The notes beneath the pieces are model-generated. The model had not been told where the DNA came from, ran no database searches, and saw nothing but the letters and a program-made list of their open reading frames with translations. A DNA stretch of 64,000 nt from a virus: positions 26,091 to 90,090 of the IMG/VR virus record IMGVR_UViG_3300048927_000308; one strand, given 5' to 3'. This document shows positions 13,870-42,141 of the stretch, one piece after another; position 1 is the first letter of the stretch; each line of letters begins with the position of its first letter. A program made the position numbers and the translations under genes.

Positions 13870-14427
13870 TTAGACTAATATATCTGCCAGTGTATACGCA
13901 TCAACCAGCAGTGCCGCCTCCGGCTTATTAAGGGCCGAAAACGCCGCTTTGCCGCCTACAGCGCCGTCAGCATGTACCGGCACCAGCCAGGGGTGAATCT
14001 TACGGATCTCCGGCGGAGCCGCGTACTGGTGATGCCATTTACAAAGCGGAAGCTGCTTTTTGTGGCAATCCGGTGCGGTCCGCCCCTCGATGTGATGAAG
14101 GGAGATCTCTGTGTTGATTACGCCGTGCATGTAGCAGGCGATACACGGCAGAGCACCGAGCGCATCAGTAATACGTTTTTCTTCTGCCGTTGGAGTTCTG
14201 CCCTTCAGACCTCTCGAATTAATCGGTTTGCGTTGTTTTGTGGCTGGTGGAGCGGGGGAGGTTAGCTTGCGCGCTCGGCGCTTGGCTTCTGCTTCGCGGC
14301 GTTTCTGGTATTGCTCTTCACGCCATACGGGGTCTGAAAGCTTGGCCCGCTGTTTGGCTATAGCCCTTTGCCGGGCTTCACTGGCACGCTGGCGACGCCT
14401 GGCGATTTGTTGCTCTGTCAATTCCAT
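13870..14427 (-). CDS. ref: RecA-dependent HNH nuclease Ref
   Basis: SRGLKGRTPTAEE..PCIACYMHG..LHHIEGRT..LPLCKWHH. Confidence 0.95.
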   Translation of the reverse strand: MELTEQQIARRRQRASEARQRAIAKQRAKLSDPVWREEQYQKRREAEAKRRARKLTSPAPPATKQRKPINSRGLKGRTPTAEEKRITDALGALPCIACYMHGVINTEISLHHIEGRTAPDCHKKQLPLCKWHHQYAAPPEIRKIHPWLVPVHADGAVGGKAAFSALNKPEAALLVDAYTLADILV

Positions 14428-14440
14428 GATTGATTGGCCC

Positions 14441-14466
14441 AAAAAAAAGACGGTCCGAAGACCGTC
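14441..14466 (-). terminator. ref leader attenuator
   Basis: GACGGTC-TTCG-GACCGTC + T8. Confidence 0.75.
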
Positions 14467-14522
14467 AGGGAGATAAATTAAGGCTTTTATTATGACAGTT
14501 ATCTTTTTCGGCTTAATTATAC

Positions 14523-14539
14523 ATAACTATTAGAGCAAT
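14523..14539 (-). promoter_or_regulatory. C1 operator upstream of ref
   Basis: ATTGCTCTAATAGTTAT. Confidence 0.75.
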
Positions 14540-14871
14540 CATAGCTTTTCATAAATTGCCCATTCATCAAGATAAGCATTGGACATCGAGATTGCCGCGA
14601 TGCCCTCTGTGCCTTCTTCAGCCCAGCCGTGACGGGTGAGGATGTTTTTGAAGCGCTTACGGTATAGGCCTTTCAGCAGTTCTGTTTTCACTTCTGTTAT
14701 GTACTCCTTGTGCGCCCGCGCTTCTGGCGAATAACGGCGACGGATAACCAAGATCAGAATTATGAACCAGCACGCGACAATCATCAGCCACCAGATAGAC
14801 AGAGCCGGGTCATTAATGGCTGAAACAATGACGTTGGCCACCAGCATAAAGACCATAAAACGGATAGGCAT
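14539..14871 (-). CDS. membrane protein
   Basis: Two N-terminal hydrophobic helices; GGAG RBS. Confidence 0.65.
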   Translation of the reverse strand: MPIRFMVFMLVANVIVSAINDPALSIWWLMIVACWFIILILVIRRRYSPEARAHKEYITEVKTELLKGLYRKRFKNILTRHGWAEEGTEGIAAISMSNAYLDEWAIYEKL

Positions 14872-14883
14872 CGTTGTTGCTCC

Positions 14884-15492
14884 TTAAGACCTCTTCCCAA
14901 TAAAAATACCGGTTTCTATCTCCGCACGTTCTTCAGGTGTGAAGATGTTTTCTGGCAGGATGGCGGCAATTTTACCCGGTGACCATGACAGCGGCTCGCT
15001 GGCGCGGATCACCTCGTTCAGGCGGTCAAAGGCCTCCTCCAGCGCCTGCGGAAGGTCTCCTCCGTCCGGCAGGTCGTCGCAATAATGGTCGCAGCCATCG
15101 ATCTGGCTCGGATAGTTAGGAGTGCAGACCACCAGCTGTAGTTCTTCCGGATATAAACCGTTTTCTAAGCAGTGATCGAGAATGTCGTCAACGTCGCTCA
15201 GGTACTTGTCGGTGCCATGCAAATGGAGCATTGCTTTCCCGTCCCACAGCTGGCGCTCCATCGCCTGATATCGCGCTTGCTCGCGCTCATCGTGGCAGGC
15301 CTCGCAGTAGCTGTTATTCGCCCGGACCCCGTGTTCGGGGTTCTTATCACAAAGCTGGTGGGTGCTACCGGCGAAGCGGGCCATATGTTCATCTTTACCC
15401 CAAAAGTGGCCGTGGCGGTCTACCCAGCCCGTCAGCGTCTGGATACTGGCAGCTTCAGTAGAGTCATACATCACGATCGGCTCTTTTTTCAT
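14884..15492 (-). CDS. hypothetical phage protein with C/H cluster
   Basis: ORF track; coupled to neighbour. Confidence 0.7.
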   Translation of the reverse strand: MKKEPIVMYDSTEAASIQTLTGWVDRHGHFWGKDEHMARFAGSTHQLCDKNPEHGVRANNSYCEACHDEREQARYQAMERQLWDGKAMLHLHGTDKYLSDVDDILDHCLENGLYPEELQLVVCTPNYPSQIDGCDHYCDDLPDGGDLPQALEEAFDRLNEVIRASEPLSWSPGKIAAILPENIFTPEERAEIETGIFIGKRS

Positions 15493-15749
15493 TTTGCAGT
15501 TCCTGTGCATTGCGCCTCGGCGCTGTTTTTAATCACTAAATAAGTAGCATGTCGCTCAATAGCCCGCCGGGCCTTTCCGGCATTAATCATTTCTGCGACT
15601 AAGGCTTGTAGTTCTTCACCTTTTTCAGGAAGTTTCTCTATCGCGCTCGCCACCTTTTTCTTCAAACACTCCATGCGATAGTCGATAGCGTTTGTAATGT
15701 CGATAGCTGGAAGGGTGATGAGAGTTTCTTCAGGGGAGATAGACATCAC
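15489..15749 (-). CDS. hypothetical protein
   Basis: Coupled ORF. Confidence 0.55.
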   Translation of the reverse strand: MMSISPEETLITLPAIDITNAIDYRMECLKKKVASAIEKLPEKGEELQALVAEMINAGKARRAIERHATYLVIKNSAEAQCTGTAK

Positions 15750-16507
15750 GACTTCTCTCCTTTTCGGATTCTCTCTGCTGCATCTTCAATAGCTTTGCTG
15801 GTGGCTGGGAAAGCCTCTTTCATCTTGGCCAGCGCCTGGCTATGAGTTATGAAGGTGGTGGTGCCATCGTTGGCCACCAGATTCGATTCATACCAATCCT
15901 CCAGTCCGGCGACGGTCATATCATCCGGCATATCTGCCTGCGCTTCGTCGGTGATAAAGGATAGCCATTTGCTGGCTTCGTATATGTCGCCCTGGTGAAT
16001 ACACAGCTGCGCGGCCTGCATGCACAGACTTGCTTTGGCGAACATCCAAGAAATGCTTAGCTCACTGGCTGCACGCATAAGAAGGGAAGCGCTTTCGTTC
16101 TCCAGTTCATGCTTATGATCTTCCAGCTCTGCAATGCGCTGCGCAGGAGTTTTATGGTCAGGTTTCTGGATGGTGATGTTAATCCGGCCGAACTCCGGCA
16201 CGTTATAATCAAAGGTGAAGAAGTTGCGTCCGCCGCCCCGCACAAACTCTGCTGCAAACATAAGAGCGGCGATGCTTGAGATTGTCCGGTTTGCAAAGAA
16301 GTATTCCAGGTTAACCGGCTCTTCACTCTTGAGCTGGTGGCCTGCTTGCTCCATCAACGCATAAAAGCGATCCATTTCGTCAGCCTTCTCCTTAATTCGC
16401 TTCAGCTCTCCGTAAAGCATGTCTACGGGTACGCCCAACAGGTCGGCGTAATTGTGGAGGGTTACGTTTACAATGCCGCTGTCGGCATGGTCAAAGGTGT
16501 TGCTCAT
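15746..16507 (-). CDS. hypothetical protein (possibly Ead/Ea22-like)
   Basis: 253 aa; AQRIAELE coiled coil. Confidence 0.6.
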   Translation of the reverse strand: MSNTFDHADSGIVNVTLHNYADLLGVPVDMLYGELKRIKEKADEMDRFYALMEQAGHQLKSEEPVNLEYFFANRTISSIAALMFAAEFVRGGGRNFFTFDYNVPEFGRINITIQKPDHKTPAQRIAELEDHKHELENESASLLMRAASELSISWMFAKASLCMQAAQLCIHQGDIYEASKWLSFITDEAQADMPDDMTVAGLEDWYESNLVANDGTTTFITHSQALAKMKEAFPATSKAIEDAAERIRKGEKS

Positions 16508-16550
16508 GTCTTTTTCCTATAGCAAGCGAACCTTGTGATATACTCGTTCG

Positions 16551-16619
16551 CGATTGATTGGCTCGTAGCAAAACTACAGCCATGTGTGCAGCCCGGCGAA
16601 AGCTGGGCTTCTTTCTTTT
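16551..16619 (+). ncRNA. predicted ~68-nt antisense sRNA
   Basis: Extended -10 TGaTATACT (16536-16544), internal hairpin, terminator AGCCCGGC-GAAA-GCTGGGCT + T-rich tail. Confidence 0.55.
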
Positions 16620-16777
16620 CAGTCCTCTCCCTTGGTGCGATAGAGCGCCACCAGCACCGATAAAGCGATAATCATTAGAGCAAATACGCCAACTTTATCT
16701 GCGTTGTAGTCCTGAAAAACCTTCCACATGTGCCAGCCGATCACCAGACCAACCAGCACCATACCAATCCTTCTCAT
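16619..16777 (-). CDS. 52-aa two-TM small protein (not in ORF track)
   Basis: MRRIGMVLVGLVIGWHMWKVFQDYNADKVGVFALMIIALSVLVALYRTKGED; ATGA overlap with upstream ORF. Confidence 0.6.
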   Translation of the reverse strand: MRRIGMVLVGLVIGWHMWKVFQDYNADKVGVFALMIIALSVLVALYRTKGED

Positions 16778-17091
16778 CGTGTGTTTCCTCGCTTCGCCAT
16801 CAGCTGTGATTGTGCTGCGCTGCGGCTCAGGCAGTCGTTGACCATGCTGATCAGCTCCCCGTACTCCGCCACCAGCTTATCCAGCCCACGGCGGGCGGTT
16901 TCATCGGTCGCATTGCTCACGAACGCCTGCGCGCTCTGGTCACTCTTCATGGGGAACTCAACCGCAATACTGGCCAGCTCTGGCATGTCTTCGGAAAGAC
17001 GAAGGCCCACAATAACTACGGGGCGGCCGTTTGCCCGGCTAGCTGCCAGGTATACGGTTTTCCCGTCGATAATGAAGGCCTGTTTGGTCAT
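16774..17091 (-). CDS. hypothetical protein
   Basis: First gene after C1 operator at 17112. Confidence 0.65.
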   Translation of the reverse strand: MTKQAFIIDGKTVYLAASRANGRPVVIVGLRLSEDMPELASIAVEFPMKSDQSAQAFVSNATDETARRGLDKLVAEYGELISMVNDCLSRSAAQSQLMAKRGNTR

Positions 17092-17111
17092 AGCTCTGTA
17101 TTTAAAATAAT

Positions 17112-17128
17112 TAAGTTATTAGAGCAAT
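17112..17128 (-). promoter_or_regulatory. C1 operator
   Basis: ATTGCTCTAATAACTTA. Confidence 0.75.
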
Positions 17129-17171
17129 AATAAAGGGGGCTTCTCTGGTTGTCATCAATAATCTGGTATTT

Positions 17172-18200
17172 TTAATCCTCTTCCAGCAGGCGCACCATTG
17201 CGCCGGTTTCGCTATCCAGGTTACGGATGTAGCTCATCACAATGTTGGTGTTGGTCCAGCCGCCAGCCTGCATGATCTCCATAATGCCTACCCCCGCGCG
17301 CGCCATGTCGCGGGCAGCGCCCACACGGGCACTGTGACCGGACCAGGCAAGATAGCGCGTGGCATTGTCACTTTTCGCGCCGTAAAGGGTGCGGTGAACA
17401 GACTCGAAGATGTTTTCCAGCGCGCGGGTAGTCAGCTTGCTGGTGGATGATGGCCCGGCCGCGTCATTCTTCAGCACGCGGCAGAACAGGTAATTGTTCG
17501 GGTCTTCGCCTACACCAGAAACGGCTATCCAGCGCTCCACCAGCTGCGTGACGTTCAGGCTCAGCGCCTTTTCCACGCCAGCGGTGCTAACCAACGTCTT
17601 TGTGCGACCGATACGCACCAGCATGCGGCCGCCCTCTGTACGGGTAATATCCTTAACACGGATACGGGCGATCTCCGCGACGCGCAGTAGCGTGTTATAG
17701 GCCAGTCCCAAAAATGCCAGGTTACGGATATCCTTCACCCGGTCACTGCCGCCGAGCAGCGCGCGCACCTGGAGGAAGTCCCGACGTTCGAAGGCCAGCG
17801 CCTGCGTTGCTCGTTCGCCAGCGTCCACGTTTTCCTTCCGGATCCGACGCATCACCAGAGAAACGGCGTTACTGTCGCTCGGACGCGGCAGCCCGGCGCG
17901 CTTGTGCAGCATATTGAGCTGTCCGAGGTGCATCTGGATCGTCTTCACCTTGCACCCGCGTTCCTGCAAACTCAGCAGATAATCGCGGACGTTCTCCGGG
18001 TCGGCCGGAAACCAGGTGTGGCCCTTTTCCATGCACCAGCCAGCCCACGCGCGGCAGACGGACATCAGCATTTTCCATGTGTGCTCGGAAAAGGCCGCTT
18101 TGTCACGGAACATCGCGTGAAGGTTATTCCGCACGTCGTCGCTGGTGGATTCGACAGGTAAAGCGGGTAAATTGTGGTGAACGGTCAACGTATCGGTCAT
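17172..18200 (-). CDS. cre: Cre tyrosine recombinase
   Basis: AYNTLLRVAEI, WSGHSARVGAARDM, GGW..VMSYIRNLDSETGAMVRLLE. Confidence 0.98.
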   Translation of the reverse strand: MTDTLTVHHNLPALPVESTSDDVRNNLHAMFRDKAAFSEHTWKMLMSVCRAWAGWCMEKGHTWFPADPENVRDYLLSLQERGCKVKTIQMHLGQLNMLHKRAGLPRPSDSNAVSLVMRRIRKENVDAGERATQALAFERRDFLQVRALLGGSDRVKDIRNLAFLGLAYNTLLRVAEIARIRVKDITRTEGGRMLVRIGRTKTLVSTAGVEKALSLNVTQLVERWIAVSGVGEDPNNYLFCRVLKNDAAGPSSTSKLTTRALENIFESVHRTLYGAKSDNATRYLAWSGHSARVGAARDMARAGVGIMEIMQAGGWTNTNIVMSYIRNLDSETGAMVRLLEED

Positions 18201-18207
18201 AAGTTAG

Positions 18208-18423
18208 TCAAATTGTTGTTTTCAGAAGAGTGTACAGCATGGATTCGGCTTTTACTCGCCCGCGCTGCGCTTCATACAGACACCAGCGGCCGCGTTCCTT
18301 CCGGATCACGTCTTCGCCTCGCGTCAGCGTCAGGTCGGTGGCTTTACGCTCGTACCCTTTAGCGCGCCAGTATCCGCGATTTTTCTCCAGCTCCAGATGT
18401 GCTGCTACGTCGCCCGCCCTCAT
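18208..18423 (-). CDS. hypothetical protein
   Basis: ATGA-coupled to upstream ORF. Confidence 0.5.
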   Translation of the reverse strand: MRAGDVAAHLELEKNRGYWRAKGYERKATDLTLTRGEDVIRKERGRWCLYEAQRGRVKAESMLYTLLKTTI

Positions 18424-19481
18424 GCCGTCACCTCTTCAGTATTGCCCACCAGCTCCATGCGGTTTTCATGGGGGTTGAAGCCATCTACCTCACTGCGTCG
18501 AAATTTACCGGCATAGTTCGGATCCTTCGTATAGCCGTTGAACTCTGGACAATGGTAGAGCTGGTGGCCAGTATGGAAAAGGCGGTAAAGCGGCTCGTTG
18601 TCAGGGAAAAGGATCTGCTTCAGTTGGTGCGCGCGCAGGTAGTCCATGCTGGCCACGGCATCGCTCAGCAGCCTTTCCAACTTGCGGCGGCGCGCGTTAC
18701 CGTTACGTTTCTGGCGCGGATTTTCCGGGCGCTGTACATAAAGGTCAAAACTGGCCTTGTTGCCGATCCCATAGCGGCCCCAAGCGACGTACCACATATT
18801 GTTGATGTTGTACCAAGCAGTGCCGGTCATGATCCGGCCTTTATGGTCGAACCACCAGACGCGAATCCCCGGTGCCAGTTGCTGGCCTTCAGCAGATTTG
18901 TAGTTGTAGGTGTATGGGTTCTTTTTCAGGTACTCGGCCCAATCGCCGTTATTGTTCCAGCTAGACCGGTAATCAGCCTTGATGATGTCCATATTGGTTA
19001 ATTTGCCGGGACCAATGTCGCTCCAGCCCGGATCCTTTTCCATCAGGCGGTAGCCGTCGAAGACGTTGGTCAGGTAGGTGACTATCCGGTTGCGGGTCCG
19101 CAACATTTCCATGCGCATCAGGTATGGCATGTGTTTTTCTTTATCGGACTGATAGCGGCCCTCGTAATCAGGGCGGTTCGGCGCGTTCACGTTCTGGAAA
19201 AACTCCAGCTCAATGCTGCGGCCGTGAAGCTTCAGATCAGCTTTTAGATCGCCTTTGGTGCAGTAGCGGAACTGGCGGGCAAAATTAACGCCGTACCGGT
19301 CAATATCCTCCTGCGGGACCACCACCAGCCAACCCAGGCGATTTAACGTCTGAATGACGCGGCGGAAGACGTCACGCTTGAATCCGCGTTCATAGGCATC
19401 GTCCACGCGCTCCGGGTTTTCCCATATATACAGGCAGGCATCGCCCAGGCGGATATCACCATTTCTTTTAATCTGTGCCAT
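18420..19481 (-). CDS. hypothetical protein with UVR-like helical motif
   Basis: 353 aa, GAGG RBS; LERLLSDAVASMDYLRAHQLKQIL. Confidence 0.75.
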   Translation of the reverse strand: MAQIKRNGDIRLGDACLYIWENPERVDDAYERGFKRDVFRRVIQTLNRLGWLVVVPQEDIDRYGVNFARQFRYCTKGDLKADLKLHGRSIELEFFQNVNAPNRPDYEGRYQSDKEKHMPYLMRMEMLRTRNRIVTYLTNVFDGYRLMEKDPGWSDIGPGKLTNMDIIKADYRSSWNNNGDWAEYLKKNPYTYNYKSAEGQQLAPGIRVWWFDHKGRIMTGTAWYNINNMWYVAWGRYGIGNKASFDLYVQRPENPRQKRNGNARRRKLERLLSDAVASMDYLRAHQLKQILFPDNEPLYRLFHTGHQLYHCPEFNGYTKDPNYAGKFRRSEVDGFNPHENRMELVGNTEEVTA

Positions 19482-19521
19482 GTAACACCTCTATTTTGAT
19501 TGATTGGCTAAGTAAGCGTGC

Positions 19522-19576
19522 GCTACGTGAATTCTGATATTTTTCGCGGGTATTTCTTCCCGAAAATTCACGTAGC
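19522..19576. repeat. 12-bp inverted repeat in cre-operon leader
   Basis: GCTACGTGAATT ... AATTCACGTAGC. Confidence 0.7.
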
Positions 19577-19635
19577 TGCATCTGATCAATGATCACACAA
19601 TCAAGCACATGTAAAACAAGGGCTTGCGATTGTGA

Positions 19636-19651
19636 CTGTATGGATATACAG
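19636..19651. promoter_or_regulatory. LexA (SOS) box beside loxP
   Basis: CTGTATGGATATACAG (CTG-N10-CAG), flanked by GATC sites. Confidence 0.8.
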
Positions 19652-19680
19652 TATATTTGATCACGTGATCAGGGTAAATA

Positions 19681-19714
19681 ATAACTTCGTATAATGTATG
19701 CTATACGAAGTTAT
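19681..19714. other. loxP: loxP site
   Basis: ATAACTTCGTATA-ATGTATGC-TATACGAAGTTAT, canonical sequence. Confidence 0.99.
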
Positions 19715-19757
19715 TGCACAGGGAGAGTCTAACCACGTTTAGGTGTGCATGGCAATA

Positions 19758-19774
19758 TAATTTATTAGAGCAAT
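19758..19774 (-). promoter_or_regulatory. C1 operator
   Basis: ATTGCTCTAATAAATTA. Confidence 0.8.
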
Positions 19775-19841
19775 ACAAAAATCACATCATAACGTGCCCT
19801 TTGTCAGAAAAGATGGCATATCTAGTTGCGCTTGTTTGACA

Positions 19842-19858
19842 ATTGCTCTAATAAAATT
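19842..19858 (+). promoter_or_regulatory. C1 operator overlapping a TTGACA promoter for the coi-c1 leader
   Basis: TTGACA directly overlapping ATTGCTCTAATAAAATT. Confidence 0.8.
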
Positions 19859-20030
19859 TAAATTTTGCACGCCTTGTGCCGGGGGCCATTTCGCTTGCTA
19901 AGCCCCGGCACATTGGCCACTGATTGCCAACGTTAAAAGCAGCGCCGGCACACAACGGTAAGAGCATTGAGTATGTGACGACATCCCGGTAAGACCAGGC
20001 ACATTTCCCTGGCGCGGCAGTGCTCTAATC

Positions 20031-20159
20031 GTTGTGGGTGTAGCTTAAATGGTAGAGCGCCTCTTGAAGGAGGAGTTGAGCGCTGCCCAAGGTTCATTAC
20101 CCGGGGCATCTCATACGGCTGGCCAGACGTTATCCGGGTTCGAGTCCCGGCACCACAAC
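20031..20159 (+). ncRNA. tRNA-like element with ~60-nt insertion
   Basis: D arm TAGCTTAAATGGTAGAGC, T arm CCGGG-TTCGAGT-CCCGG, closing GTTGTGG/CCACAAC; irregular anticodon arm. Confidence 0.5.
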
Positions 20160-20419
20160 TTGATCTTGAAGGTAGCGCCCAGCCGGAGGTGGCGAGTAAC
20201 ACCGGCAGCAATAGCAGTAAGCGGGAATCCTCCAACACCTGAGCCGCACGATCCCGAATGCCGTACGCGCCATTTTGTGAATAGGGACAAGAAGGCAAAC
20301 GAGGCCTGAATGGTCGGACTGAGATATTGCCGCTTAGCCCACGTCAAGGGCCAATTACAGGAACATTGGGCTGCCCTGAAGGGGCTCTGTGATGCGATTT
20401 TCTAAGTAGGGAACTCACG

Positions 20420-20629
20420 ATGGCTTTTACAACTCCTACCACTGATGATGTTAGAAATTATTCTAACGATTTGTCTTTAGACCTCACTTCACCCGACGCT
20501 GCTCGTATTCTTACCGAGCATCACCTCAAGCTCTCAAACCAGGACTACCGCGTCTCAGATGACGACCGGAACGACTTGGAAGACTCCATTGAGTACCAGA
20601 TCTACACCCTCCTCACAGAATCCTCTTGA
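20420..20629 (+). CDS. coi: C1 repressor inactivator Coi
   Basis: 69 aa acidic MAF..PT.DDVR..SN, upstream of c1. Confidence 0.9.
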   Translation: MAFTTPTTDDVRNYSNDLSLDLTSPDAARILTEHHLKLSNQDYRVSDDDRNDLEDSIEYQIYTLLTESS

Positions 20630-20645
20630 ATGCTCTAATAAATCT
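20629..20645 (+). promoter_or_regulatory. C1 operator upstream of c1
   Basis: AATGCTCTAATAAATCT. Confidence 0.7.
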
Positions 20646-20737
20646 ATTTTTTTTAATAGATCCTTTTATAATGTTGAGAACATTCCCCGTCGCTAGGGAT
20701 CGGGGGATGTGACTCGTATCATTATTGGAGGAACTAT

Positions 20738-21589
20738 ATGGTCAACTATGTCTATGGCGAGAAGCTATACAGGGAATTCGTTAAGTTTAGGGAGCAATTT
20801 CTTGCCAGTGCTGTTGAGCGCGCGCAGCATGTAGACACAGCAAGCGATGGGCGGGCGGTTCGTCCGGTTGTTGTTTTGCCATTCAAAGAAACAGATCGCA
20901 TCCAGGCTGAAATTGATAAATGGACCGCGATGGCCAGCGAGCTGGAGCAGTATCCAGATCTTAACGTGCCCAAGACCATCCTTTACCCTATTCCAAATAT
21001 TCTACGTGGAGTAAGGAAGGCTACAACCTATCAAACAGAAGCTATTAACAGCGTCAATATGACCGCTAAACGCATTATTCATCTGTTGGATAAAGACATT
21101 CGTATTCAAACGACATCTGATACGAGTGATTGGGGAAAGAAATATATAAGCAATCTTGAGAAAACCAAAAAAATATTTGAACAGTTCCCTGATGATGAAA
21201 AGTTCAGAATGAGGATCCATGGTTTCAGCGAAACAATGCTGAGAGTCCACTACATCTCCACCAGCCCTAATTTTAATGGTGGCAAGTCAGTGCCTTACCA
21301 TGTTCCTTTGTGTGGGGTATTCATCTGCGATGAAACTTTACGGGATGGATTGTCCATTGGGCCAGAGTTTGAAAAAGAGAAGTTTAGCTTATACGACTCG
21401 CTTGAACCTATTATTTGTGACCGCTGGCCACAAGCTAAAATTTACCGAATGAAAGATATCGAAGATGTTAAAGGTAAACTTGCACAACTCAGAGAAAATA
21501 AGAAAGCACAATCAGCAGCTTCCACAACTCGCACCCGTAAAACAAAATCGGGAAATTCAGTTAATGAAAATCCCGATAGTGCCAAATAA
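20738..21589 (+). CDS. c1: primary repressor C1
   Basis: 283 aa; NYVYGE..RPVVVLPFKETD.IQAEIDKWT. Confidence 0.95.
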   Translation: MVNYVYGEKLYREFVKFREQFLASAVERAQHVDTASDGRAVRPVVVLPFKETDRIQAEIDKWTAMASELEQYPDLNVPKTILYPIPNILRGVRKATTYQTEAINSVNMTAKRIIHLLDKDIRIQTTSDTSDWGKKYISNLEKTKKIFEQFPDDEKFRMRIHGFSETMLRVHYISTSPNFNGGKSVPYHVPLCGVFICDETLRDGLSIGPEFEKEKFSLYDSLEPIICDRWPQAKIYRMKDIEDVKGKLAQLRENKKAQSAASTTRTRKTKSGNSVNENPDSAK

Positions 21590-25995: not shown

Positions 25996-26256
25996 TTATT
26001 CGTTATTAGCCTGAATGGCTGGTGGCACGGTTTTCCCGTTGCCGGGCTTCCAATTCAGAGCGGGAATGATCACCGCCTCTTTGGGTTTACCGCATTCAGC
26101 TGCTGCGTCCAGCTCGGCATGAGCATCAACGAGCTGTGCAAGGACCAGTTCCACAGCCTCAAAGGCGTTCGTCTCGTCGATACCACGATCGTTAATTTCG
26201 TAGCCGTGTTCGTTCAACAGGTCAATAATGCGGACTAGCTGGTTATTCTTTCCCAT
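25996..26256 (-). CDS. hypothetical protein
   Basis: GGAG RBS. Confidence 0.6.
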
Positions 26257-34669: not shown

Positions 34670-34965
34670 AACCCACGCTCCGATCTGGTTCTGGCCACCT
34701 TTACAGCCTTCAGCCCGTCAGAGGTGATCATCACAGGATGCCAGGACGTCGCCTTGCCAGCTTTCGGCGGAGTAACAAAATCCACCAGCCCCAGGCGGTA
34801 CAGCACCGGGATGCTGGGCGCGTTAACCGGCCGATGTGAGCGCGGGCCATCCAGGCGTTGTTCGTCAGCCTTCAGGCCATCGCCGCGCATCAGGTAGCGC
34901 GTTCCACTGTTCAGGCGGCGCAGGGTGTAAACCTGCGAATCAGTCAAGGAAAGTGCTGTCTTCAT
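34666..34965 (-). CDS. hypothetical protein
   Basis: Coupled ORF. Confidence 0.55.
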   Translation of the reverse strand: MKTALSLTDSQVYTLRRLNSGTRYLMRGDGLKADEQRLDGPRSHRPVNAPSIPVLYRLGLVDFVTPPKAGKATSWHPVMITSDGLKAVKVARTRSERGL

Positions 34966-35357
34966 TTTTTGATTCCTTGCTCAACGTTTTTCAGGTCGTT
35001 TTCGGCAAAAAGAATTGATGTGCGAGCGGCGCGAAGCCGGGCTTTGGCGTTTTTCTCTTCGCGTTCCAGATTGGCTACGGAGGTGCGCAGCTCATCCGCG
35101 CGGTGGCGCAGCTGTTTGATCTCGGTGACGACGTGCCGCGCCTTATTGGCGCAATCCAGGATGTAATCGAACGGGTCCAGCTCCGATTTGCAGACGTCGC
35201 AATAAAAACTCCGCCGGGACTCGTCCACGAAGGTGCGCGGGTGCGGGCAGCGCTTTTGCTGATGCGTCTTTTCGTTTTCGACCTGCACGTTAAGAAGCTC
35301 TTCTTCGTTCGGCTCCGGACGCACCAGCTTGATGATTTTATTCTCGTCGTCGCTCAC
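34962..35357 (-). CDS. zinc finger + coiled-coil protein
   Basis: CPH..CDVC. Confidence 0.6.
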   Translation of the reverse strand: MSDDENKIIKLVRPEPNEEELLNVQVENEKTHQQKRCPHPRTFVDESRRSFYCDVCKSELDPFDYILDCANKARHVVTEIKQLRHRADELRTSVANLEREEKNAKARLRAARTSILFAENDLKNVEQGIKK

Positions 35358-35839
35358 AGCGTCACCTCTTCCGGAAGGGCGCAGCGGCGCACATATTTTT
35401 CAACGAGCGGGCCGACTTCATGCCCAATCGCGGCGCAGACTTCCTTCGCGATCTCGGTATAGCCCTGCTCTGGCAAAAACTCAGTTTCGGTCATCCCCTT
35501 TCCACGCAGCACCAGGCGCGCGATGTCGAACGCCGGGCGGGTCAGATGATCGGGCAGCTTAAAATAAAAGGCCTCGCCGGGGCGGCGGTCGGAAATGACC
35601 AAGCGCTCACGATCCACCAGCGCGTTGATACGGCGCAGCGACTGGCTCACGGACAGCGGCAGGTCCAGCACGTAGCCACGGGAAACAGAGCAGATCTGCG
35701 TTGCGGAACGGTGCCAATAATCGTCAGCGCCTGCCAGGCCGCGTAGGTTTCCGACATAGTGATGAGTTGCGGTATACGGCAGCTTTTTAACCGTCGCGTG
35801 CCAGACGGCCAAAAGGATTTCTTTATCGTTAATTTTCAA
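35354..35839 (-). CDS. hypothetical protein
   Basis: TTG start with GGAGG RBS (MKINDKEILL). Confidence 0.6.
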   Translation of the reverse strand: MKINDKEILLAVWHATVKKLPYTATHHYVGNLRGLAGADDYWHRSATQICSVSRGYVLDLPLSVSQSLRRINALVDRERLVISDRRPGEAFYFKLPDHLTRPAFDIARLVLRGKGMTETEFLPEQGYTEIAKEVCAAIGHEVGPLVEKYVRRCALPEEVTL

Positions 35840-35841
35840 AC

Positions 35842-36150
35842 TTATGCCCTCCGGCATGAGCTCAGCAACTGGTGGACGTGGTAGCCACGCCAGTTGCGTT
35901 TGCATAGTTCGAAAATCATATTGCCTGGACCGCGCGCGCTGGCATCGACGCATGTCCCAAAAAGCCCGTCGCTCAGCATTACTAGGCCATCCTTAATCTG
36001 GACGTGCCCTCTTCCCAGGCTGTAAGAGATAGCCCTGCCAATTTGCGCATTAGATAAGCCGGTGATGCTGGCGATTTCACGGCGGGTAAGCGGGCCGTGT
36101 TTTTCCAATACATCGTTAATGAGTTGGCGTGAGGAAATATTTTTGATCAT
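35842..36150 (-). CDS. wHTH protein
   Basis: GPLTRREIASITGLS. Confidence 0.65.
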   Translation of the reverse strand: MIKNISSRQLINDVLEKHGPLTRREIASITGLSNAQIGRAISYSLGRGHVQIKDGLVMLSDGLFGTCVDASARGPGNMIFELCKRNWRGYHVHQLLSSCRRA

Positions 36151-36308
36151 AGGGCGTCATCCCCCGACAGATCGCAGAGATAGCTTGCTGAGACATTCCC
36201 TAAGTGGCGAGACGCCTTCATATTGGCGTCCGGTTTGAAGCTGGTTACAGCGACAGTAAACATCCAGATGTAAAACGCTGTAACGGCCAACTTTAAAAAA
36301 GCATTCAT
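36147..36308 (-). CDS. 53-aa protein with hydrophobic N-terminus (not in ORF track)
   Basis: MNAFLKLAVTAFYIWMFTVAVTSF..; GGAG RBS; ATGA overlap. Confidence 0.55.
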   Translation of the reverse strand: MNAFLKLAVTAFYIWMFTVAVTSFKPDANMKASRHLGNVSASYLCDLSGDDAL

Positions 36309-36396
36309 ATTGGCTCCAATGATTGATTGGCTATTTCAACAGCCGCTGAAAGCGTGCGGCTTGGTGGTATTATTATCTTTTGGGACTTAAAAAACA

Positions 36397-36413
36397 ATAT
36401 TTATTAGAGCAAT
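36397..36413 (-). promoter_or_regulatory. C1 operator
   Basis: ATTGCTCTAATAAATAT. Confidence 0.8.
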
Positions 36414-36513
36414 TAAAAGGGTGACGTGCTTGCAAAACGCTATGGCGGCGTCCAAGGTCAAAAAAAAGCCGATGGGCAGAAACCCATCAGCATTGATTGT
36501 GACACTGTAACGG

Positions 36514-37776
36514 TTAACGAACGTAAATGGTCCCTCCGTTCTCTTTCTCCCATGCGTCAGTGCGCGCATAGCAAACGTCAAGCAGCGTTTTAGCAACTTC
36601 AGCAGATAGGTCATAGTTAGCCACCAGCTGTGCGTGACGCCGCGTGACCACATCGAACAGTGTATGAAGGCCTTTGCTGGCCAGGTCATCAACCAGCGCA
36701 TCGTCCAGCGGCAATTCCGCATCAACTAGCATTAATTCCTGAGCCCATTCAACACGGCGCACTAGCTCAGGTCGGCGGCTTTCCATCTCTTCGCAGATCA
36801 GCTCGTGGAAAAACTCAATCCATCCTTCAGGTTGGTATTCTTCAAACAGATCGATAGGCTGGAAATTGGGCATCAACCATTCGTTGATACGGATGTCCAG
36901 GGCGTAGCCCATGTCACAGCAGAACTGATAAGCAAAATCCAGTTTTGAGACAATATAAGGCCTCTCGCTGTTGAACTGCTTTGGCGCTGTTACTCCATAA
37001 GCGAGCAGGCGCGGATAGAAGGTTATCGGACCCAAGGTCGGGTGTTCTTTCTTTGAGGTGAAACGGCGCTGAGTTATGCCGTACATCTCTTTTTGTAGGT
37101 TGCCATATTTGGTTGTTTCTTCCGCCAGTCGTACCGTTTCGGTTTTCTGCTTGGCATAGGCTATGCGCGCTTCGCTGAGGTCTTTGATGTGCTTTTTGAT
37201 CTGCTGGTTAAGGTCTGCTACCTGTTTGCGCAGCTCCTGGCGTTCACGCTTAGCTTTGGCGTAACGTTTTTCAAGATTAACGGGATCAAGTTTCAACAGC
37301 TCTTTGTAGCTCTTGCTAAGGGTATTGACCTGCTGGTTACGCAGCTCCAGGAGCGTGGTAGTTTCGTTTAGCTTGTTCTCCATCTCCAGGCAGAACTGCT
37401 CTGCCTTTTCGGCGCGCTGTATTGCATCGTGAGTGGCTTCCTCAATATCATCCTGCTTCTGGCGATCGCGTTGGTCCATAAGCAGCTGAAGGTCTTCAAG
37501 CTCTTTCTCTTTCACGCCCAGCTTGATCTGCACATTTTCGTACATGTCCAAAAGCGAATTGTAATTATCAACTTCGCCGTTATGGGCATCTATTGCTTGC
37601 ACCATAAGCATTTCTGCGGACTGGACAGCGTTATCAAAGAAACGGATGGTCAGATCATCACAGGTTACTCGGCGTTGCGCCGCGCGGATATTCTGGATTA
37701 CGGCCGGGATACCGGCTTCGAGAATTTCAGGAATGGTTGTTGCAGTGATTGATTGGCTTTGTGCAGTAGCGGTCAT
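36514..37776 (-). CDS. pmgS: PmgS-like coiled-coil protein
   Basis: AGIPAVIQNIRAAQRRV; synteny. Confidence 0.8.
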   Translation of the reverse strand: MTATAQSQSITATTIPEILEAGIPAVIQNIRAAQRRVTCDDLTIRFFDNAVQSAEMLMVQAIDAHNGEVDNYNSLLDMYENVQIKLGVKEKELEDLQLLMDQRDRQKQDDIEEATHDAIQRAEKAEQFCLEMENKLNETTTLLELRNQQVNTLSKSYKELLKLDPVNLEKRYAKAKRERQELRKQVADLNQQIKKHIKDLSEARIAYAKQKTETVRLAEETTKYGNLQKEMYGITQRRFTSKKEHPTLGPITFYPRLLAYGVTAPKQFNSERPYIVSKLDFAYQFCCDMGYALDIRINEWLMPNFQPIDLFEEYQPEGWIEFFHELICEEMESRRPELVRRVEWAQELMLVDAELPLDDALVDDLASKGLHTLFDVVTRRHAQLVANYDLSAEVAKTLLDVCYARTDAWEKENGGTIYVR

Positions 37777-37778
37777 TT

Positions 37779-37997
37779 TTAGATTTCCGTTTTGGCTTCT
37801 TTTTCGGTCATTTTTCCAAGGTATGAAGGCGGCAGCATTACGCAATCGGTGTCCAGCCCTTCTCCCAGCGCCGCCTGTAAAATCCTTGCCGGCGTGAGTC
37901 GTTTGTTAGGGTAGCGAGTAATAACGCTCTTTATACCGCCTGTAGGCGGAACAAACGCCAACAACCAGTAGTGGTACTTCTTCTTGAACAGGCGCAT
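37779..37997 (-). CDS. pmgR: PmgR-like protein
   Basis: KYHYWLLAF..SYLGKMT; synteny. Confidence 0.7.
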   Translation of the reverse strand: MRLFKKKYHYWLLAFVPPTGGIKSVITRYPNKRLTPARILQAALGEGLDTDCVMLPPSYLGKMTEKEAKTEI

Positions 37998-38011
37998 ACG
38001 CCCTCCACTTT

Positions 38012-38077
38012 ATTGCTCTAATAAAAAACATGGCGATAATACACCATGCTTTAATAAAATGAAATTATTAGAACAAT
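38012..38077. promoter_or_regulatory. pair of oppositely oriented C1 operators
   Basis: ATTGCTCTAATAAAAAA (+, 38012-38028); ATTGTTCTAATAATTTC (-, 38061-38077). Confidence 0.7.
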
Positions 38078-38078
38078 T

Positions 38079-38792
38079 TTAATCGGATTCGCTTTCTGAA
38101 ATCGCGGGCAGCGCGTTGCGGGAGCCGGGAATCCAAGGTTCTGACACTTGGCGAGGGCGCGGGAGGCCGTGGAAAAAGACAATTCGGCAGTTGTCCGGTA
38201 GTTGTCCGTTCCCGCGCGAATAGCGTGAGCTTGCATACTTGCTGTTTGGCAAAACGATGTCTGCTTTGTAGCTTTTGAACCAGCCCGGGTAAAGGTCGTG
38301 GAATGTGGCAGTATCGTCCCCCATCACTTTCCGTAAAAAGCCCTGATCGCCCCAACATTCTGTAGTGATGCAGCGCGCAATCCAGCCTTTAGGATCCTGC
38401 CAGAAAGCGGACCAGATTTGCGATTTTACGTCATTGGGAATCCACATTGCCCCACTGCCCAAGTATTCGGGATGATAGAAGTCTTTTAGCATCGTAAATT
38501 TAAGGGGGGGATTGTCTAAAATTGGCGTAATATCGCCAGTAATGACTGTATCCAGGTCCAGATAAAACAGGTCGTCTTTTATGTCCGGGCGGAATAATTC
38601 AATTTTAGCCCACCACCCACGACAATTATTCCATTTGTGAATGAGCGGGATGCAAGTTACACCCGGGATCCTCATGTGCTTCATGTCTGTAAGGCAGAGA
38701 ATCTCGTAGTTTTTAGGCAGTTGATTCACCAGCCATTGGACGTCTGACGCGTTATAGTCACCGCCAGAGCGAAGAACGAGCGCAATTTTCAC
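38079..38792 (-). CDS. pmgQ: PmgQ; predicted GT-A glycosyltransferase
   Basis: CLTD, WWAKIELF, YLDLD (DxD), GDQGFL, VFFHGLPRP. Confidence 0.78.
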   Translation of the reverse strand: MKIALVLRSGGDYNASDVQWLVNQLPKNYEILCLTDMKHMRIPGVTCIPLIHKWNNCRGWWAKIELFRPDIKDDLFYLDLDTVITGDITPILDNPPLKFTMLKDFYHPEYLGSGAMWIPNDVKSQIWSAFWQDPKGWIARCITTECWGDQGFLRKVMGDDTATFHDLYPGWFKSYKADIVLPNSKYASSRYSRGNGQLPDNCRIVFFHGLPRPRQVSEPWIPGSRNALPAISESESD

Positions 38793-38796
38793 TGTG

Positions 38797-39456
38797 TTAA
38801 TCCTTCAGTTGCAAAAGGGTCAGGTTGCCGCAAAACACGGCCCCTGTGTCGATGTAGTGCTGATTCCAGCAGGTAAGCGGTGCGCGTGTCGGGGTGTGAC
38901 CAAACACGAAGCGATCAGCTCCCGCGATCGGGCCTCCAATATCATCTTGAGAATCAGCGATTCTGCCCCGGTTCCAAATGACGTCATGCAATGAAATCTC
39001 TTTGCCGAACTGATACTCATCCGAAGGATAATCAGCATGGGCAATGACGGTTTTTTCGTCACCGTAGTTAAGTTCTATGATGTAGGGCAATTGGCTTACC
39101 AGCTGCGCAAGCGCGCCCGCAAGCCGTTCTTTGTCATAATCAAGCTGGAAGAACCAATTACCTCCATTAGCTAACCAATGATCTACGTTACCGTTTTGGG
39201 ATAACGCATTGACCATCATATCCTCATGGTTTCCACGCACTGCCCTAAACCATGGCATCTGAAGTAATTCAAGACATTCAATATTTTCAGTGCCACGGTC
39301 TATTAGGTCGCCTACCGAAATCAACAGATCATCTGCCGGAGAAAAATCTACCTTGTCGAGGCTGTGCATAAGATTGGTATGGCATCCGTGGAGATCGCCA
39401 ACCGCCCATATTTTTCTGTAAAGACTGCCATCTATACGGTGATAGATAGGACTCAT
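38797..39456 (-). CDS. ppp: Ser/Thr protein phosphatase (NinI/PPP family)
   Basis: GDLHG, GDLIDRG, RGNHE, GHT. Confidence 0.93.
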
Positions 39457-40079
39457 GAGTTCTTCAGCCATTCTTTGAGGGTCATTTTAGGGATACCGTC
39501 CATTTGCCCGCAGGAAACGACATTGATCTGATTGCGTGCAGACTGGAATAGGAGAGGCAAATGGCTCAGATTATTCGGTACGCCACCGGAGTGAACTCGC
39601 GGTTGTTGCGTGGCATCCACGCCCACCAGCGCAACATTTTTAAAGCCAAGGTGATAAGCCATATTGAGTGCACCATAAGCGCTATTGCCACTTGAGATCT
39701 CGTTTTTATCCTCACATAGACCTAATTTCGCTGACCAACGCCAGGCCCACCACTCCGGCGTATCTTTGGCTACTGGTTCCTCAACCCGTGCAGCCACCCG
39801 ACGCATGCACCAAATACCGTCACGCTGTTCAAGTTGTTCGACATCGGGTAACGCCATGCAGTAGCGCACACCACGACGACGGCGGCCACGAGCCACTCGC
39901 TGAAGGTTTTCACGAGATGGATCAAGCGTGAAGAAGAATGAAGCCCGGTTGAGCCAGTCAATAGCGCCATTAACAGCAATAATTGGTACACCGCGCGGCG
40001 CCACGAAATTCAGCGCGCTGGGGCCGCTGCCGACGATAATGACGCGATCACCGTATTCAGGTTTATTCGTGGAAAACAT
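39453..40079 (-). CDS. pmgP: PmgP; Maf/GT42-like fold
   Basis: [38 protein letters not shown]. Confidence 0.75.
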
Positions 40080-40618
40080 TGAAGGTCACTTCTCCTGCTA
40101 GCATTCAAAATTTTTAATTTAGGGTGCCGTTCGCGTATGCGTTGGAACTGCTGATGCCACTTCATGACAGAGGTAACTGTTGGGTTACGCAAGCTGCCGC
40201 TGTGCGGGCCATGCCAGTGCGTTCCGTGGGCAATTGAACAGTCATATCCCAATAAAACGACGGTTTTTGCGCCCAACTCCTCGGCGAAGCTGATAGCCAT
40301 AGCACCACTGTTAAATCCTTCTTGCGGTCCGCAATAACGCCTGTATTCAAGTGCGTAGGACTTTGCTGCTGCTAAGTTGGCGGTTATCTTTCGAAACCGT
40401 CCAGTGGGCACCTCTTTGCGGTACTGCTTCCACCAGGCGAGATCACCGGCGAACAGAGCATAAATATTTTCAAAGAGCTGCCAGGTGTTGTTGACCGCGA
40501 TGATGGAGCAACCGCTCTTTTCCACTGCTGCACAGTCTTCAGGTGTCAGCGATGGACCGCTGGCTACACAAAAGACGGTTTCAGTCAGCGACTTCAGTTG
40601 CTGCGTTTTCTTCAGCAA
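40010..40618 (-). CDS. second Maf/GT42-like protein (pmgO position)
   Basis: CVASGPSL, IIAVN, NSGAMAISFAEELGAKTVVLLGYD; GGAGG-6-TTG start. Confidence 0.75.
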   Translation of the reverse strand: MLKKTQQLKSLTETVFCVASGPSLTPEDCAAVEKSGCSIIAVNNTWQLFENIYALFAGDLAWWKQYRKEVPTGRFRKITANLAAAKSYALEYRRYCGPQEGFNSGAMAISFAEELGAKTVVLLGYDCSIAHGTHWHGPHSGSLRNPTVTSVMKWHQQFQRIRERHPKLKILNASRRSDLQCFPRINLNTVIASLSSAAAPAR

Positions 40619-40754
40619 ACTCAGCCTCCAGACGGCGGTACATTTCGTTTACCAGCCCGTCAACATGGCGTTCAATTTCAACTTGATTGCGGGGCATAAT
40701 GCCGGTGACGGCACCAGCGAGGTTAAGCGGATCATTCGGTTTGTTTGCGGCCAT
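40581..40754 (-). CDS. small protein (pmgN position)
   Basis: DPLNLAGAVTGIMP..RHVDGLVNEM. Confidence 0.6.
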   Translation of the reverse strand: MAANKPNDPLNLAGAVTGIMPRNQVEIERHVDGLVNEMYRRLEAEFAEENAATEVAD

Positions 40755-40832
40755 TTTTCCCTCTGCAAAGCAATGTGATACGCCGGAGCGTAAAGGAAGT
40801 ATCATGTTAGATCTATTATACTAATAAAAATA

Positions 40833-41411
40833 TTATTTTTTATTAAGCGTGAGCCATTTACTTTCGTTCAACACTTGGTCGATCGTGTGCCCTTTGGGTA
40901 GGCTTACATACTCCAGAATGGCCGTAATAGCCTGCTCTGCACCGTATGCAAGCACTGCGTAATAACCTTGATTCCGCAATCGGTTTAACCATTCAATCTG
41001 TTCAGTTGATGGTCCTTTCCCGTCTGGTTCCTTCAGCTCCAGACGCATCCCGTGATATACCCCGCGCGGCATGTCCAGGGACATATCCGGGTAGCCCTTC
41101 TTTTGGCCCTCGGCTTTCATTTTCCCCGCTGTTGCTTTAGTACGTTTGCCGCCGTTTGGCGTCGCGTGAAGCAATTCGTATATTTCAGGGTGTTTACGCT
41201 CGAAGTAATCAAAAATAATGACCTGCTCGTAATGTTCCTGATTTCCTTTACGAAGATCTGGATTTTTGGCCAGCGCTGCCAGCGCTATTGCATGCGGTGA
41301 TGGCTCCTTGGTAGGAGCCAGGGACAAAAAGGGGTCGCTCTTCTTTGCTTTTTTACCGGCTTTCCGGGAGGCCGTGAACGCTTTAAATTCATCTTCTGTA
41401 AACCGAAGCAT
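40833..41411 (-). CDS. pmgM: PmgM; VRR-NUC nuclease
   Basis: PNGG..GYPD..LELK..SteQ..W. Confidence 0.85.
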   Translation of the reverse strand: MLRFTEDEFKAFTASRKAGKKAKKSDPFLSLAPTKEPSPHAIALAALAKNPDLRKGNQEHYEQVIIFDYFERKHPEIYELLHATPNGGKRTKATAGKMKAEGQKKGYPDMSLDMPRGVYHGMRLELKEPDGKGPSTEQIEWLNRLRNQGYYAVLAYGAEQAITAILEYVSLPKGHTIDQVLNESKWLTLNKK

Positions 41412-41414
41412 TTA

Positions 41415-41660
41415 TCAATCCAGGTCTGACGGGCGACGGCCATATTTCCGTGCCATTGCAGCTTGCTCTTCCCTATGCCAGGAAGCACAATCCGCATCGC
41501 AATAAATACCGCTAGTAATCGGCTCATCGCAATACTGGCATTTGCCTGTGTGTGTGCGGCTACATGACCGTGCCTGCTCACGTATCCCTTGAATGGCCAA
41601 ATCTTTGATAGTCTCTTCAACGTTGGCACTCAAATCGACTTCATCAGCATAATTAGACAT
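41415..41660 (-). CDS. TraR/DksA-like C4 zinc-finger protein (pmgL position)
   Basis: ADEVDL..CQYCDEPI..YCDADC. Confidence 0.7.
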   Translation of the reverse strand: MSNYADEVDLSANVEETIKDLAIQGIREQARSCSRTHTGKCQYCDEPITSGIYCDADCASWHREEQAAMARKYGRRPSDLD

Positions 41661-41822
41661 CTAACGCCCTCCCTGGCGCAGGTTGCGCGCAGCCCGCAGG
41701 CTGGCCATTGGATCATAGGTCTTGCCGTTATCTTTCGGCTCTTTCAACTTTTTCCCGCGACGCTGTCGGTTATAGTCCCGCAAGAAATTAGTGTCACGAT
41801 CAGGGATGTCCCAAACACGCAT
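41661..41822 (-). CDS. 53-aa Arg/Lys-rich peptide (not in ORF track)
   Basis: MRVWDIPDRDTNFLRDYNRQRRGKKLKEPKDNGKTYDPMASLRAARNLRQGGR; stop abuts next ATG. Confidence 0.5.
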   Translation of the reverse strand: MRVWDIPDRDTNFLRDYNRQRRGKKLKEPKDNGKTYDPMASLRAARNLRQGGR

Positions 41823-41883
41823 ACTCTATATCTCGTTCGTTGTGGTTAAGGGATGAAAAAAACGCCAAAATATGGCGTTTTAC

Positions 41884-41900
41884 ATATTAATTAGAGCAAT
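41884..41900 (-). promoter_or_regulatory. C1 operator
   Basis: ATTGCTCTAATTAATAT. Confidence 0.7.
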
Positions 41901-41901
41901 A

Positions 41902-42060
41902 TTAGTTAATATTTTTCGCATGCTCGTAGATCAGCACCAGGAAGTACAACAACGTGAACGTAACGCAGAAGGCGTTGAGACAAAACATGGCCACCTTGCC
42001 AAAGGTGACTTTTTCAGAGGGGTGATGCACATCGTTTCGCGGCATAGCGAAGTCTTTCAT
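41902..42060 (-). CDS. 52-aa single-TM protein
   Basis: AAGGA RBS; VAMFCLNAFCVTFTLLYFLVLIY. Confidence 0.55.
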   Translation of the reverse strand: MKDFAMPRNDVHHPSEKVTFGKVAMFCLNAFCVTFTLLYFLVLIYEHAKNIN

Positions 42061-42141
42061 GGTCTGTATCCTTTGATTGATTGGCATGGGCCGCTGAAGC
42101 GTGCGGCCACAACCAAAATATATCAGACCATTAAAAAAATA

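Follow-up and report, generated by a model that had tools for sequence, protein, structure and literature searches.

Why should one short sequence recur, always on the same strand, at the starts of genes scattered along a phage genome? The question is raised by a viral DNA of 64,000 nucleotides (nt), positions 26,091 to 90,090 of IMG/VR record IMGVR_UViG_3300048927_000308, which is referred to at its full length as the window. In it, the 11-mer GATTGATTGGC occurs exactly six times, at 14428, 16552, 19498, 36321, 37747 and 42075, with all six copies on the + strand and none on the − strand. An earlier reading of the letters alone, here called the original prediction, had listed these same six sites and had proposed that the copy at 16552 begins a small RNA (sRNA) antisense to the other five. 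The analysis described here leads to an answer of this kind, which we regard as reasonably probable: an unannotated sRNA of P1-type phages, around 68 nt in length, that would pair in trans with complementary boxes in five phage messenger RNAs (mRNAs).

The repeated 11-mer and the candidate RNA gene

The window belongs to a divergent P1-type phage, as judged from 16 sites resembling the C1 operator (0.1 expected), a C4 antisense RNA (RF01695) at 6290-6370 on the + strand (56.4 bits against a gathering score of 45) and a lox-like stretch. The nearest annotated record is that of Cronobacter phage JK004, at ~89% identity to the window. The − strand is the coding strand for nearly all genes of the region, and the box there reads GCCAATCAATC; C1-operator-like sites on the − strand lie upstream of all six copies. 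Extending the count to the full virus record of 90,090 base pairs (bp) returns the same six copies only, with none in reverse, against a first-order Markov expectation of 0.04. In the window, matches with one mismatch allowed number seven, compared with 1.6 expected from shuffles. Among relatives, JK004 retains all six boxes exactly, together with a homologous sRNA unit.

What sets the 16552 copy apart is its surroundings. An extended −10 read from the sequence (TGaTATACT, 16536-16544, +) is separated by a 7-nt spacer from a predicted transcription start at G16552, and the promoter-to-terminator unit that follows (16552-16619, +) runs into an intrinsic terminator at 16590-16619 (+), made up of an 8-bp stem, a GAAA loop and the tail UUCUUUCUUUU, with the 3′ end of the RNA predicted to lie inside this U-rich tail. 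In a terminator scan, the stem-loop at 16590-16609 with its T-rich tail was the top-scoring + strand terminator of the region. The predicted fold of the 68-nt RNA (−26.3 kcal/mol) leaves nt 1-7 of the seed GAUUGAUUGGC (16552-16562, +) free, sequesters nt 8-11 in the base of hairpin 1 (16559-16582, +) and ends with the terminator. The candidate therefore has its own promoter and Rho-independent terminator, and there is no conserved open reading frame (ORF) inside the unit. This is the architecture that the original prediction had ascribed to the 16552 copy alone, and it is conserved across four lineages. No C1 operator overlaps the promoter, in the window or in P1, and the candidate RNA is thus probably made in lysogens too. 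Rfam gave no match at the locus that reached its gathering threshold, C4 (RF01695) included; the top sub-threshold scores were those of BjrC68 for the window (19.4 bits, threshold 39) and SorX for P1 (22.6 bits, threshold 46.6).

The five other copies read in the sense of − strand mRNAs, at the genes to which they had first been assigned. The box at 14428-14438 covers −11 to −1 of ref, the identity of which was confirmed (phrog_2321, E 2.5e-82), and abuts the ATG, downstream of a C1 operator at 14523-14539. At 19498-19508 the box covers −27 to −17 of a gene of 353 amino acids (aa), 16 nt before the ATG and 4 nt 5′ of the Shine-Dalgarno (SD) sequence GAGGUG; this gene heads a post-lox operon that continues with a 71-aa gene and the gene of a Cre-like recombinase. 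Two small hydrophobic ORFs have boxes in their leaders: one of 53 aa at 36321-36331 (−23 to −13, 12 nt before the ATG), downstream of a C1 operator at 36397-36413, and one of 52 aa at 42075-42085 (−25 to −15, 14 nt before the ATG), downstream of a C1 operator at 42142-42158 and of a 5′ stem-loop. The last box, at 37747-37757, lies at the pmgR/pmgS junction downstream of an operator at 38061-38077 and covers +20 to +30 (codons 7-10) of pmgS, the product of which is 69.5% identical to P1 PmgS. In three cases an SD lies within 1-4 nt 3′ of the box.

Conservation and covariation across four lineages

The sRNA unit was compared in four lineages, the Cronobacter type, the Salmonella type, P1 and Pantoea. 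From ~95 loci, 23 sequence variants of the unit were obtained, and 15 variants covering the four lineages were aligned. Matches to the locus at ~76% identity come from five Salmonella phage-plasmids and three IMG/VR contigs; the −10, spacer length, seed and terminator of these Salmonella-type loci are the same as in the window, and hairpin 1 is wholly different. A search anchored on Cre found the core CCAATCAATC at two fixed positions in ~80 P1-type loci. P1 itself (NC_005856.1) carries the unit in the c8-ref interval, on the strand opposite c8 and ref, from ~1894 to 1827, in the order TGcTATACT, 7-nt spacer, GATTGATTGGA, hairpin and terminator with a U8 tail; the P1 record is heavily annotated and has no feature at this place. 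The unit of a Pantoea prophage, the Cre of which is 65% identical, has a 6-nt spacer and the seed GATTGATTGUG.

Among the variants, the −10 (TGTGnTATAnT) is invariant, with a variable −35 region and a spacer of 6-7 nt; nt 1-9 of the RNA are identical in 23 of 23, and a GCAG linker and the terminator are conserved. Since the invariant nt 1-9 follow a variable spacer, the predicted +1 is exactly where conservation sets in. Between lineages, hairpin 1 has been exchanged, four unrelated sequence designs sharing one architecture. In all predicted folds of the variants nt 1-7 of the seed are unpaired, and every variant ends in a U-rich tail (U8 in P1). The candidate is, in essence, a conserved and accessible seed attached to a drifting remainder.

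Pattern scans returned the same loci. A promoter-plus-seed pattern found P1-type loci in IMG/VR and ~48 chance matches without the sRNA architecture, and a seed-plus-terminator pattern found only Cronobacter-, Salmonella- and Pantoea-type loci again in metagenomes and IMG/VR; the first pattern scan of genome contigs gave no match. A covariance-model scan of 151 Pantoea-family genomes recovered the known locus only, plus a false match at the terminator after a housekeeping gene. Distant D6-like phage-plasmids (Cre ~40% identical) have one box copy each, which is background, and the RNA, at least with its present seed, therefore does not reach them.

Several features show the strand on which the structure has been maintained. 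The terminator stem is 100% paired in the 15 aligned variants, with two compensatory pairs and one change from G-C to G·U, as compared with 12-63% pairing in slid controls; on the opposite strand, the G·U pair would be an A·C mismatch. Of six variants, five have an RNA strand that folds more stably than its complement, by 3-14 kcal/mol, and in P1 the two strands fold equally well. Hairpin 1 of Pantoea contains five G·U pairs and disappears on the opposite strand (−27.2 compared with −13.5 kcal/mol). In P1, the sense-strand copy of the box at 1885 precedes no gene, the ref promoters being situated further downstream; that this copy serves as template for the 5′ end of the antisense RNA is the simplest explanation of why it is conserved.

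A uniform table of boxes in four complete genomes contains 18 trans sites. The 9-mer CAATCAATC occurs 6-8 times per ~92-kb genome where 1.1-1.6 copies are expected, and, apart from a few intragenic copies at chance level, all are mRNA-sense at translation starts. A Pantoea box on the opposite DNA strand (C10:58346) is still mRNA-sense and 5′ of an SD. The box is phage-specific: of its 23 copies in the Pantoea genome (5.4 Mb), 7 fall on the phage contig of 94 kb. Three target classes are found in all four lineages: the post-lox leader (that of cra in P1), the early codons of pmgS and the leader of a small ORF before pmgT. In P1, boxes of the same sense stand 11 nt before the cra ATG, in codons 7-10 of pmgS and after the C1-controlled pmgT promoter (Op88). 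Orthologues of the box at 19498 precede cra in P1 and post-lox genes in Salmonella and Pantoea; those of the 36321 box are found in P1 (after Op88/PpmgT), Salmonella (77617) and Pantoea, and those of the 42075 box in Salmonella and Pantoea. A box in the leader of an 'MKDF' small ORF is common to three lineages. The ref box is kept in JK004 and in a metagenome relative and is absent from P1 and Salmonella, making it specific to the Cronobacter lineage. Complementary sites at several translation-initiation regions, five of them trans sites in the window, are thus conserved in relatives. Two conserved or matching 9-mers were rejected as targets, both of them deep in coding sequence and at chance level: one at window position 53861, within the FinO gene discussed below, and a copy reading GGCAATCAATCAG in orthologous coding regions (G000:C1:20489, outside the window, and Salmonella NZ_CP146848.1:41481), the latter also because the G at −1 cannot pair with G10.

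Support for pairing comes from the last two bases of the seed, which differ between lineages (G or U at position 10; C, U or A at position 11 among natural variants). Position 10 can pair with the RNA of its own lineage at 18 of 18 trans sites. It is G in the P1, Salmonella and Cronobacter types, where twelve of the 13 trans sites have C and the remaining one has U (a G·U wobble), and U in Pantoea, where the five trans sites have A, A, A, G and G, and never C; swapping this base between lineages would create mismatches at 12 of 13 and 5 of 5 sites. At position 11, the RNA of the Cronobacter type has C and all five of its sites have G, whereas that of the Salmonella type has U and all five sites have A. 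This last switch has been made within pmgS at the cost of a Ser-to-Asn replacement. The pmgS box is retained in the four lineages amid diverged neighbouring codons, and in Pantoea it lies in another reading frame (S-N-Q-S as compared with N-Q-S-I), which argues for selection on the nucleotides. The base directly 3′ of the box is A in 17 of the 18 trans sites. At the cis locus of three lineages this base, the first to lie beyond the RNA, is G. A 3′ adenosine has been reported to flank sRNA target sites (PMC3495738). The original prediction would have failed if seed and targets were not conserved together in relatives; they are both co-conserved and co-varying in P1, the Salmonella phage-plasmids and the Pantoea prophage.

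Some further observations were made on the leaders and their surroundings. The leaders of both small ORFs (36332-36360 and 42086-42110, − strand) contain near-identical 5′ stem-loops, GCCGCACGCUU(U)CAGCGGC; the string CGCACGCUU also lies 5′ of the box at 19498, and related stem-loops occur in Salmonella and Pantoea. These stem-loops may act as a common stabiliser of the 5′ end or as a second element for recognition. An unannotated hydrophobic ORF of 28 aa lies in P1 between pmgT and the Op88/PpmgT promoter (NC_005856.1, 84393-84479), preceded by a 5′ stem-loop, a box and an SD, the start of which resembles that of the 53-aa ORF of the window (36147-36308). In Salmonella NZ_CP146848.1, an extra 68-aa gene after lox (63514-63741) has a stem-loop and box of its own, giving two consecutive post-lox genes with boxes. 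A long leader in the window, downstream of the C1 operator at 19842-19858, includes a stretch at 20034-20157 (+) that matches the tRNA model RF00005 (32.9 bits over 124 nt) and has the look of a tRNA with a large insertion. As for C4, the immI riboregulator is present in the window phage in a gene order unlike that of P1.

Weighing the alternatives

A number of observations weigh against pairing in trans. The Pantoea lineage is represented by a single genome, and position 11 pairs at only one of three P1 sites and none of five Pantoea sites. In a P1-like contig (L082, IMGVR_UViG_2663763286_000020) G10 is replaced by U and the cra box keeps its C, which may be either a tolerated polymorphism or a sequencing error. 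Ranked by hybridisation energy alone, the sites come 1, 2 and 7-11 among 12,008 windows and thus do not stand out alone, and predicted box accessibility is moderate (probability of being unpaired 0.33-0.87); folds of the leaders give no clear picture of sequestration. The conserved A 3′ of the box also fits a slightly longer motif recognised by a protein, and a protein reading CAAUCAAUCA could coexist with the RNA. Parts of the stretch are found in four sequencing runs as contigs only, carrying no information on strand, ends or level. A preprint on P1vir Δhfq RNA sequencing describes pmgS and pap as up and pmgR as down, and the break between pmgR and pmgS coincides exactly with the pmgS box; cra and pmgT do not fit this pattern, however, and the hint is a mixed one.

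One alternative, that the 11-mer is a repeat of chance or common descent without function and the promoter- and terminator-like sequences are fortuitous, is very unlikely. Consensus scans do give many promoter-like and terminator-like sites, and the contigs just mentioned say nothing of expression, but six copies stand against 0.04 expected, and they remain exact in relatives of ~89% and ~76% overall DNA identity, and as far as P1 and Pantoea, between flanks that have diverged. A more serious competitor, albeit still an unlikely one, is that the box is a sense-strand RNA or DNA element read by a protein (for instance a phage-encoded translational repressor like T4 RegA, a factor in RNA processing, or a host factor for which the box is a C/A-rich translational enhancer), the promoter and terminator at 16552 having no role in trans. 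It would account for a box that is always mRNA-sense and adjoins the SD, for the flanking A that the RNA cannot pair with, for the stem-loops of related sequence 5′ of several boxes and for the failure of energy and accessibility to single the sites out. It leaves unexplained why in all lineages the opposite strand has an invariant extended −10 at a distance of 6-7 nt from the box, why hairpins and terminator are strand-specific and why P1 keeps a copy without a gene. Moreover, the purines that replace C at position 10 in Pantoea and the concerted change from A to G at five Cronobacter sites match Watson-Crick or wobble pairing with the local RNA, and no candidate binding protein was identified. 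The two accounts would be compatible if the RNA masks an enhancer, as GcvB does.

That the RNA is real and acts only in cis is likewise unlikely. As a convergent antisense RNA or terminator, it could insulate the gene upstream (c8 in P1, a 52-aa ORF in the window) from the unit downstream, or it could be a type I antitoxin for that membrane ORF, the other boxes being unrelated. The geometry of the locus lends itself to such a role: the leader of a 253-aa gene (15746-16507, −), the ATG of which lies 44 nt from the 16552 copy, is wholly antisense to the sRNA and would make it a cis partner, and the 3′ end of the RNA meets the stop codon of a convergent two-helix hydrophobic ORF of 52 aa (16619-16777, −; phrog_28190), an arrangement like that of lambda OOP and of type I pairs that overlap at their 3′ ends. 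Yet the 253-aa gene is found only in the Cronobacter and Salmonella lineages and the 52-aa ORF is absent from P1, so that P1 lacks both and Pantoea lacks the former, and both keep the RNA; overlap with the upstream coding sequence is 3 nt at most, and the invariant nt 1-9 amid a replaced remainder, together with co-varying boxes in trans, go unexplained. A type I toxin-antitoxin pair was rejected on the same overlap, on the occurrence of the RNA in P1 without the ORF and on the lack of a box in the ORF; an OOP-type cis-antisense RNA was rejected in view of a 3′ end that meets a stop codon only, at 16619 in the window and at the c8 stop (1827-1829) in P1. Within the 52-aa ORF, ~60 nt past the sRNA terminator, lies a partial C1-operator-like string, ATTAGAGCAA (16670-16690, +); its counterpart in Salmonella, ATTAGAACAA, is weaker, and the likeness is probably a coincidence of the coding sequence.

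A putative RNA layer in P1-type phages

The mechanism that would follow from pairing in trans can be set out as a model. The segment 16552-16619 (+) would give rise to a constitutively promoted, terminator-ended RNA, the Cronobacter-lineage version of a P1-type sRNA gene. Its single-stranded 5′ end, GAUUGAUUGG plus a lineage-specific 11th base, would pair with the box (G)CCAAUCAAUC in the mRNAs of ref, the first gene of the post-lox/cre operon, the two small hydrophobic ORFs that head C1-controlled operons, and pmgS. The resulting duplex of 10-11 bp would either end 0-16 nt upstream of the start codon, with 1-4 nt between it and the SD, or cover +20 to +30. These positions fall within the span generally held to be occupied by the initiating 30S subunit, and translational repression is therefore the most likely outcome: a block to initiation, possibly followed by mRNA decay. 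The sign of regulation is inferred from this geometry; the candidate is probably a repressor, and activation through structural remodelling may be an alternative. The RNA would thereby add a post-transcriptional threshold on top of C1 repression, directed at some of the C1-controlled operons when these are expressed early or through leakage. The comparison shows the conserved anatomy of the gene, the strandedness of its structure, the position and orientation of the boxes and their covariation with the seed; production of the RNA, its pairing and any chaperone are inferred.

Two possible chaperones deserve comment. The original prediction had suggested help from a FinO/ProQ protein encoded at 53605, and the gene at 53605-54138 (+) does encode a protein with a FinO domain (PF04352, 46.7 bits against a cut-off of 27). 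It has homologues in the Salmonella and Pantoea lineages and none in P1, which keeps the RNA; the FinO protein is thus not a general requirement. As a general helper, it is the part of the earlier interpretation that is not supported, whereas the notion of one seed copy and several docking sites at C1-controlled genes is supported by the covariation. The sRNA terminators of the three non-P1 lineages, which have the FinO gene, contain a GAAA loop and an interrupted U tail, and that of P1, which lacks it, a UCCUU loop and a U8 tail; with four lineages this is a mere correlation. U-rich tails of this kind would suit Hfq.

The candidate shares traits with several known regulators and is identical to none. 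RybB and OmrA/OmrB are likewise independent short units with an intrinsic terminator and a conserved single-stranded 5′ seed that addresses many mRNAs at or near the ribosome-binding site. Their targets tend to have a flanking 3′ adenosine (PMC3495738). The candidate has no sequence or Rfam relationship to them, is encoded by phage-plasmids and is apparently aimed at the C1-controlled genes of the phage itself. The c4 RNA of the P1/P7 immI region (RF01695) is a riboregulator of the same phage family that blocks translation through short complementarity near a ribosome-binding site; it is processed from the transcript it regulates, pairs through two internal loops and has the single target operon icd-ant, whereas the candidate is a predicted primary transcript with a 5′ seed, dispersed targets and no similarity to RF01695. 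For GcvB, Sharma et al. are said to have described in 2007 a G/U-rich seed that addresses C/A-rich elements at ribosome-binding sites, with several targets sharing one box. The candidate resembles it in that a pairing region rich in G and U faces a C/A-rich box immediately upstream of the SD, which box may itself be a translational enhancer; unlike the candidate, GcvB has an internal seed and a length of ~200 nt, and its Rfam model scores 10.7 bits on the P1 locus against a gathering threshold of 42. Lambda OOP is a short, constitutive, terminator-ended RNA that converges with cII, a gene for the establishment of lysogeny. The candidate too is terminator-ended and convergent with such a gene, c8 in P1. 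OOP, however, overlaps the 3′ coding end of cII extensively and acts in cis via RNase III, and what is conserved in the candidate is not an overlap but a seed matching distant sites.

Phage-encoded sRNAs that act in trans by base pairing and tune the phage life cycle are represented by lambda PreS and VP882 VpdS (PMC12197685). These were found experimentally and act largely on host mRNAs, unlike the candidate, which is predicted and the recognisable targets of which are phage genes. The original prediction knew of no such regulon in P1-like phages, and the literature checked agrees: for P1/P7, a review of phage sRNAs from 2025 (PMC12197685) lists c4 and no other, and a P1 preprint of late 2025 likewise names c4 alone. 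Literature searches returned no description of the candidate RNA, and text searches with the box sequence gave only unrelated primers. Judged from sequence, the candidate is probably a trans-acting 5′-seed sRNA that is encoded by the phage and aimed at its own early genes. What the window adds are divergent lineages that permit a covariation test, the frame shift at pmgS and lineage-specific targets such as ref.

A broader proposal, possible though doubtful, is that RNA and boxes form a family-wide, co-evolving RNA layer of P1-type immunity, in which a constitutive sRNA sets a threshold for the cra/cre, pmgS and two membrane-peptide operons and variants of seed and box make control specific to the lineage, comparable to the part played by c4 in P1 and P7. 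The P1 record annotates c8 merely as putative 'establishment of lysogeny'; with the sRNA immediately after c8, part of that phenotype could be due to the RNA. The prediction lends itself unusually well to testing, since it involves a single short gene with a 10-nt seed and few, well-defined boxes. Cre/lox comes from P1, a classic model phage, and phage-plasmids of its type are common in Enterobacteriaceae. Among the predicted targets are the cre-carrying operon, ref as a recombination enhancer (in the Cronobacter lineage), pmgS and two unannotated membrane peptides. If the prediction is true, a second conserved RNA in P1 would alter the view of its early gene expression, of the maintenance of lysogeny and of Cre dosage.

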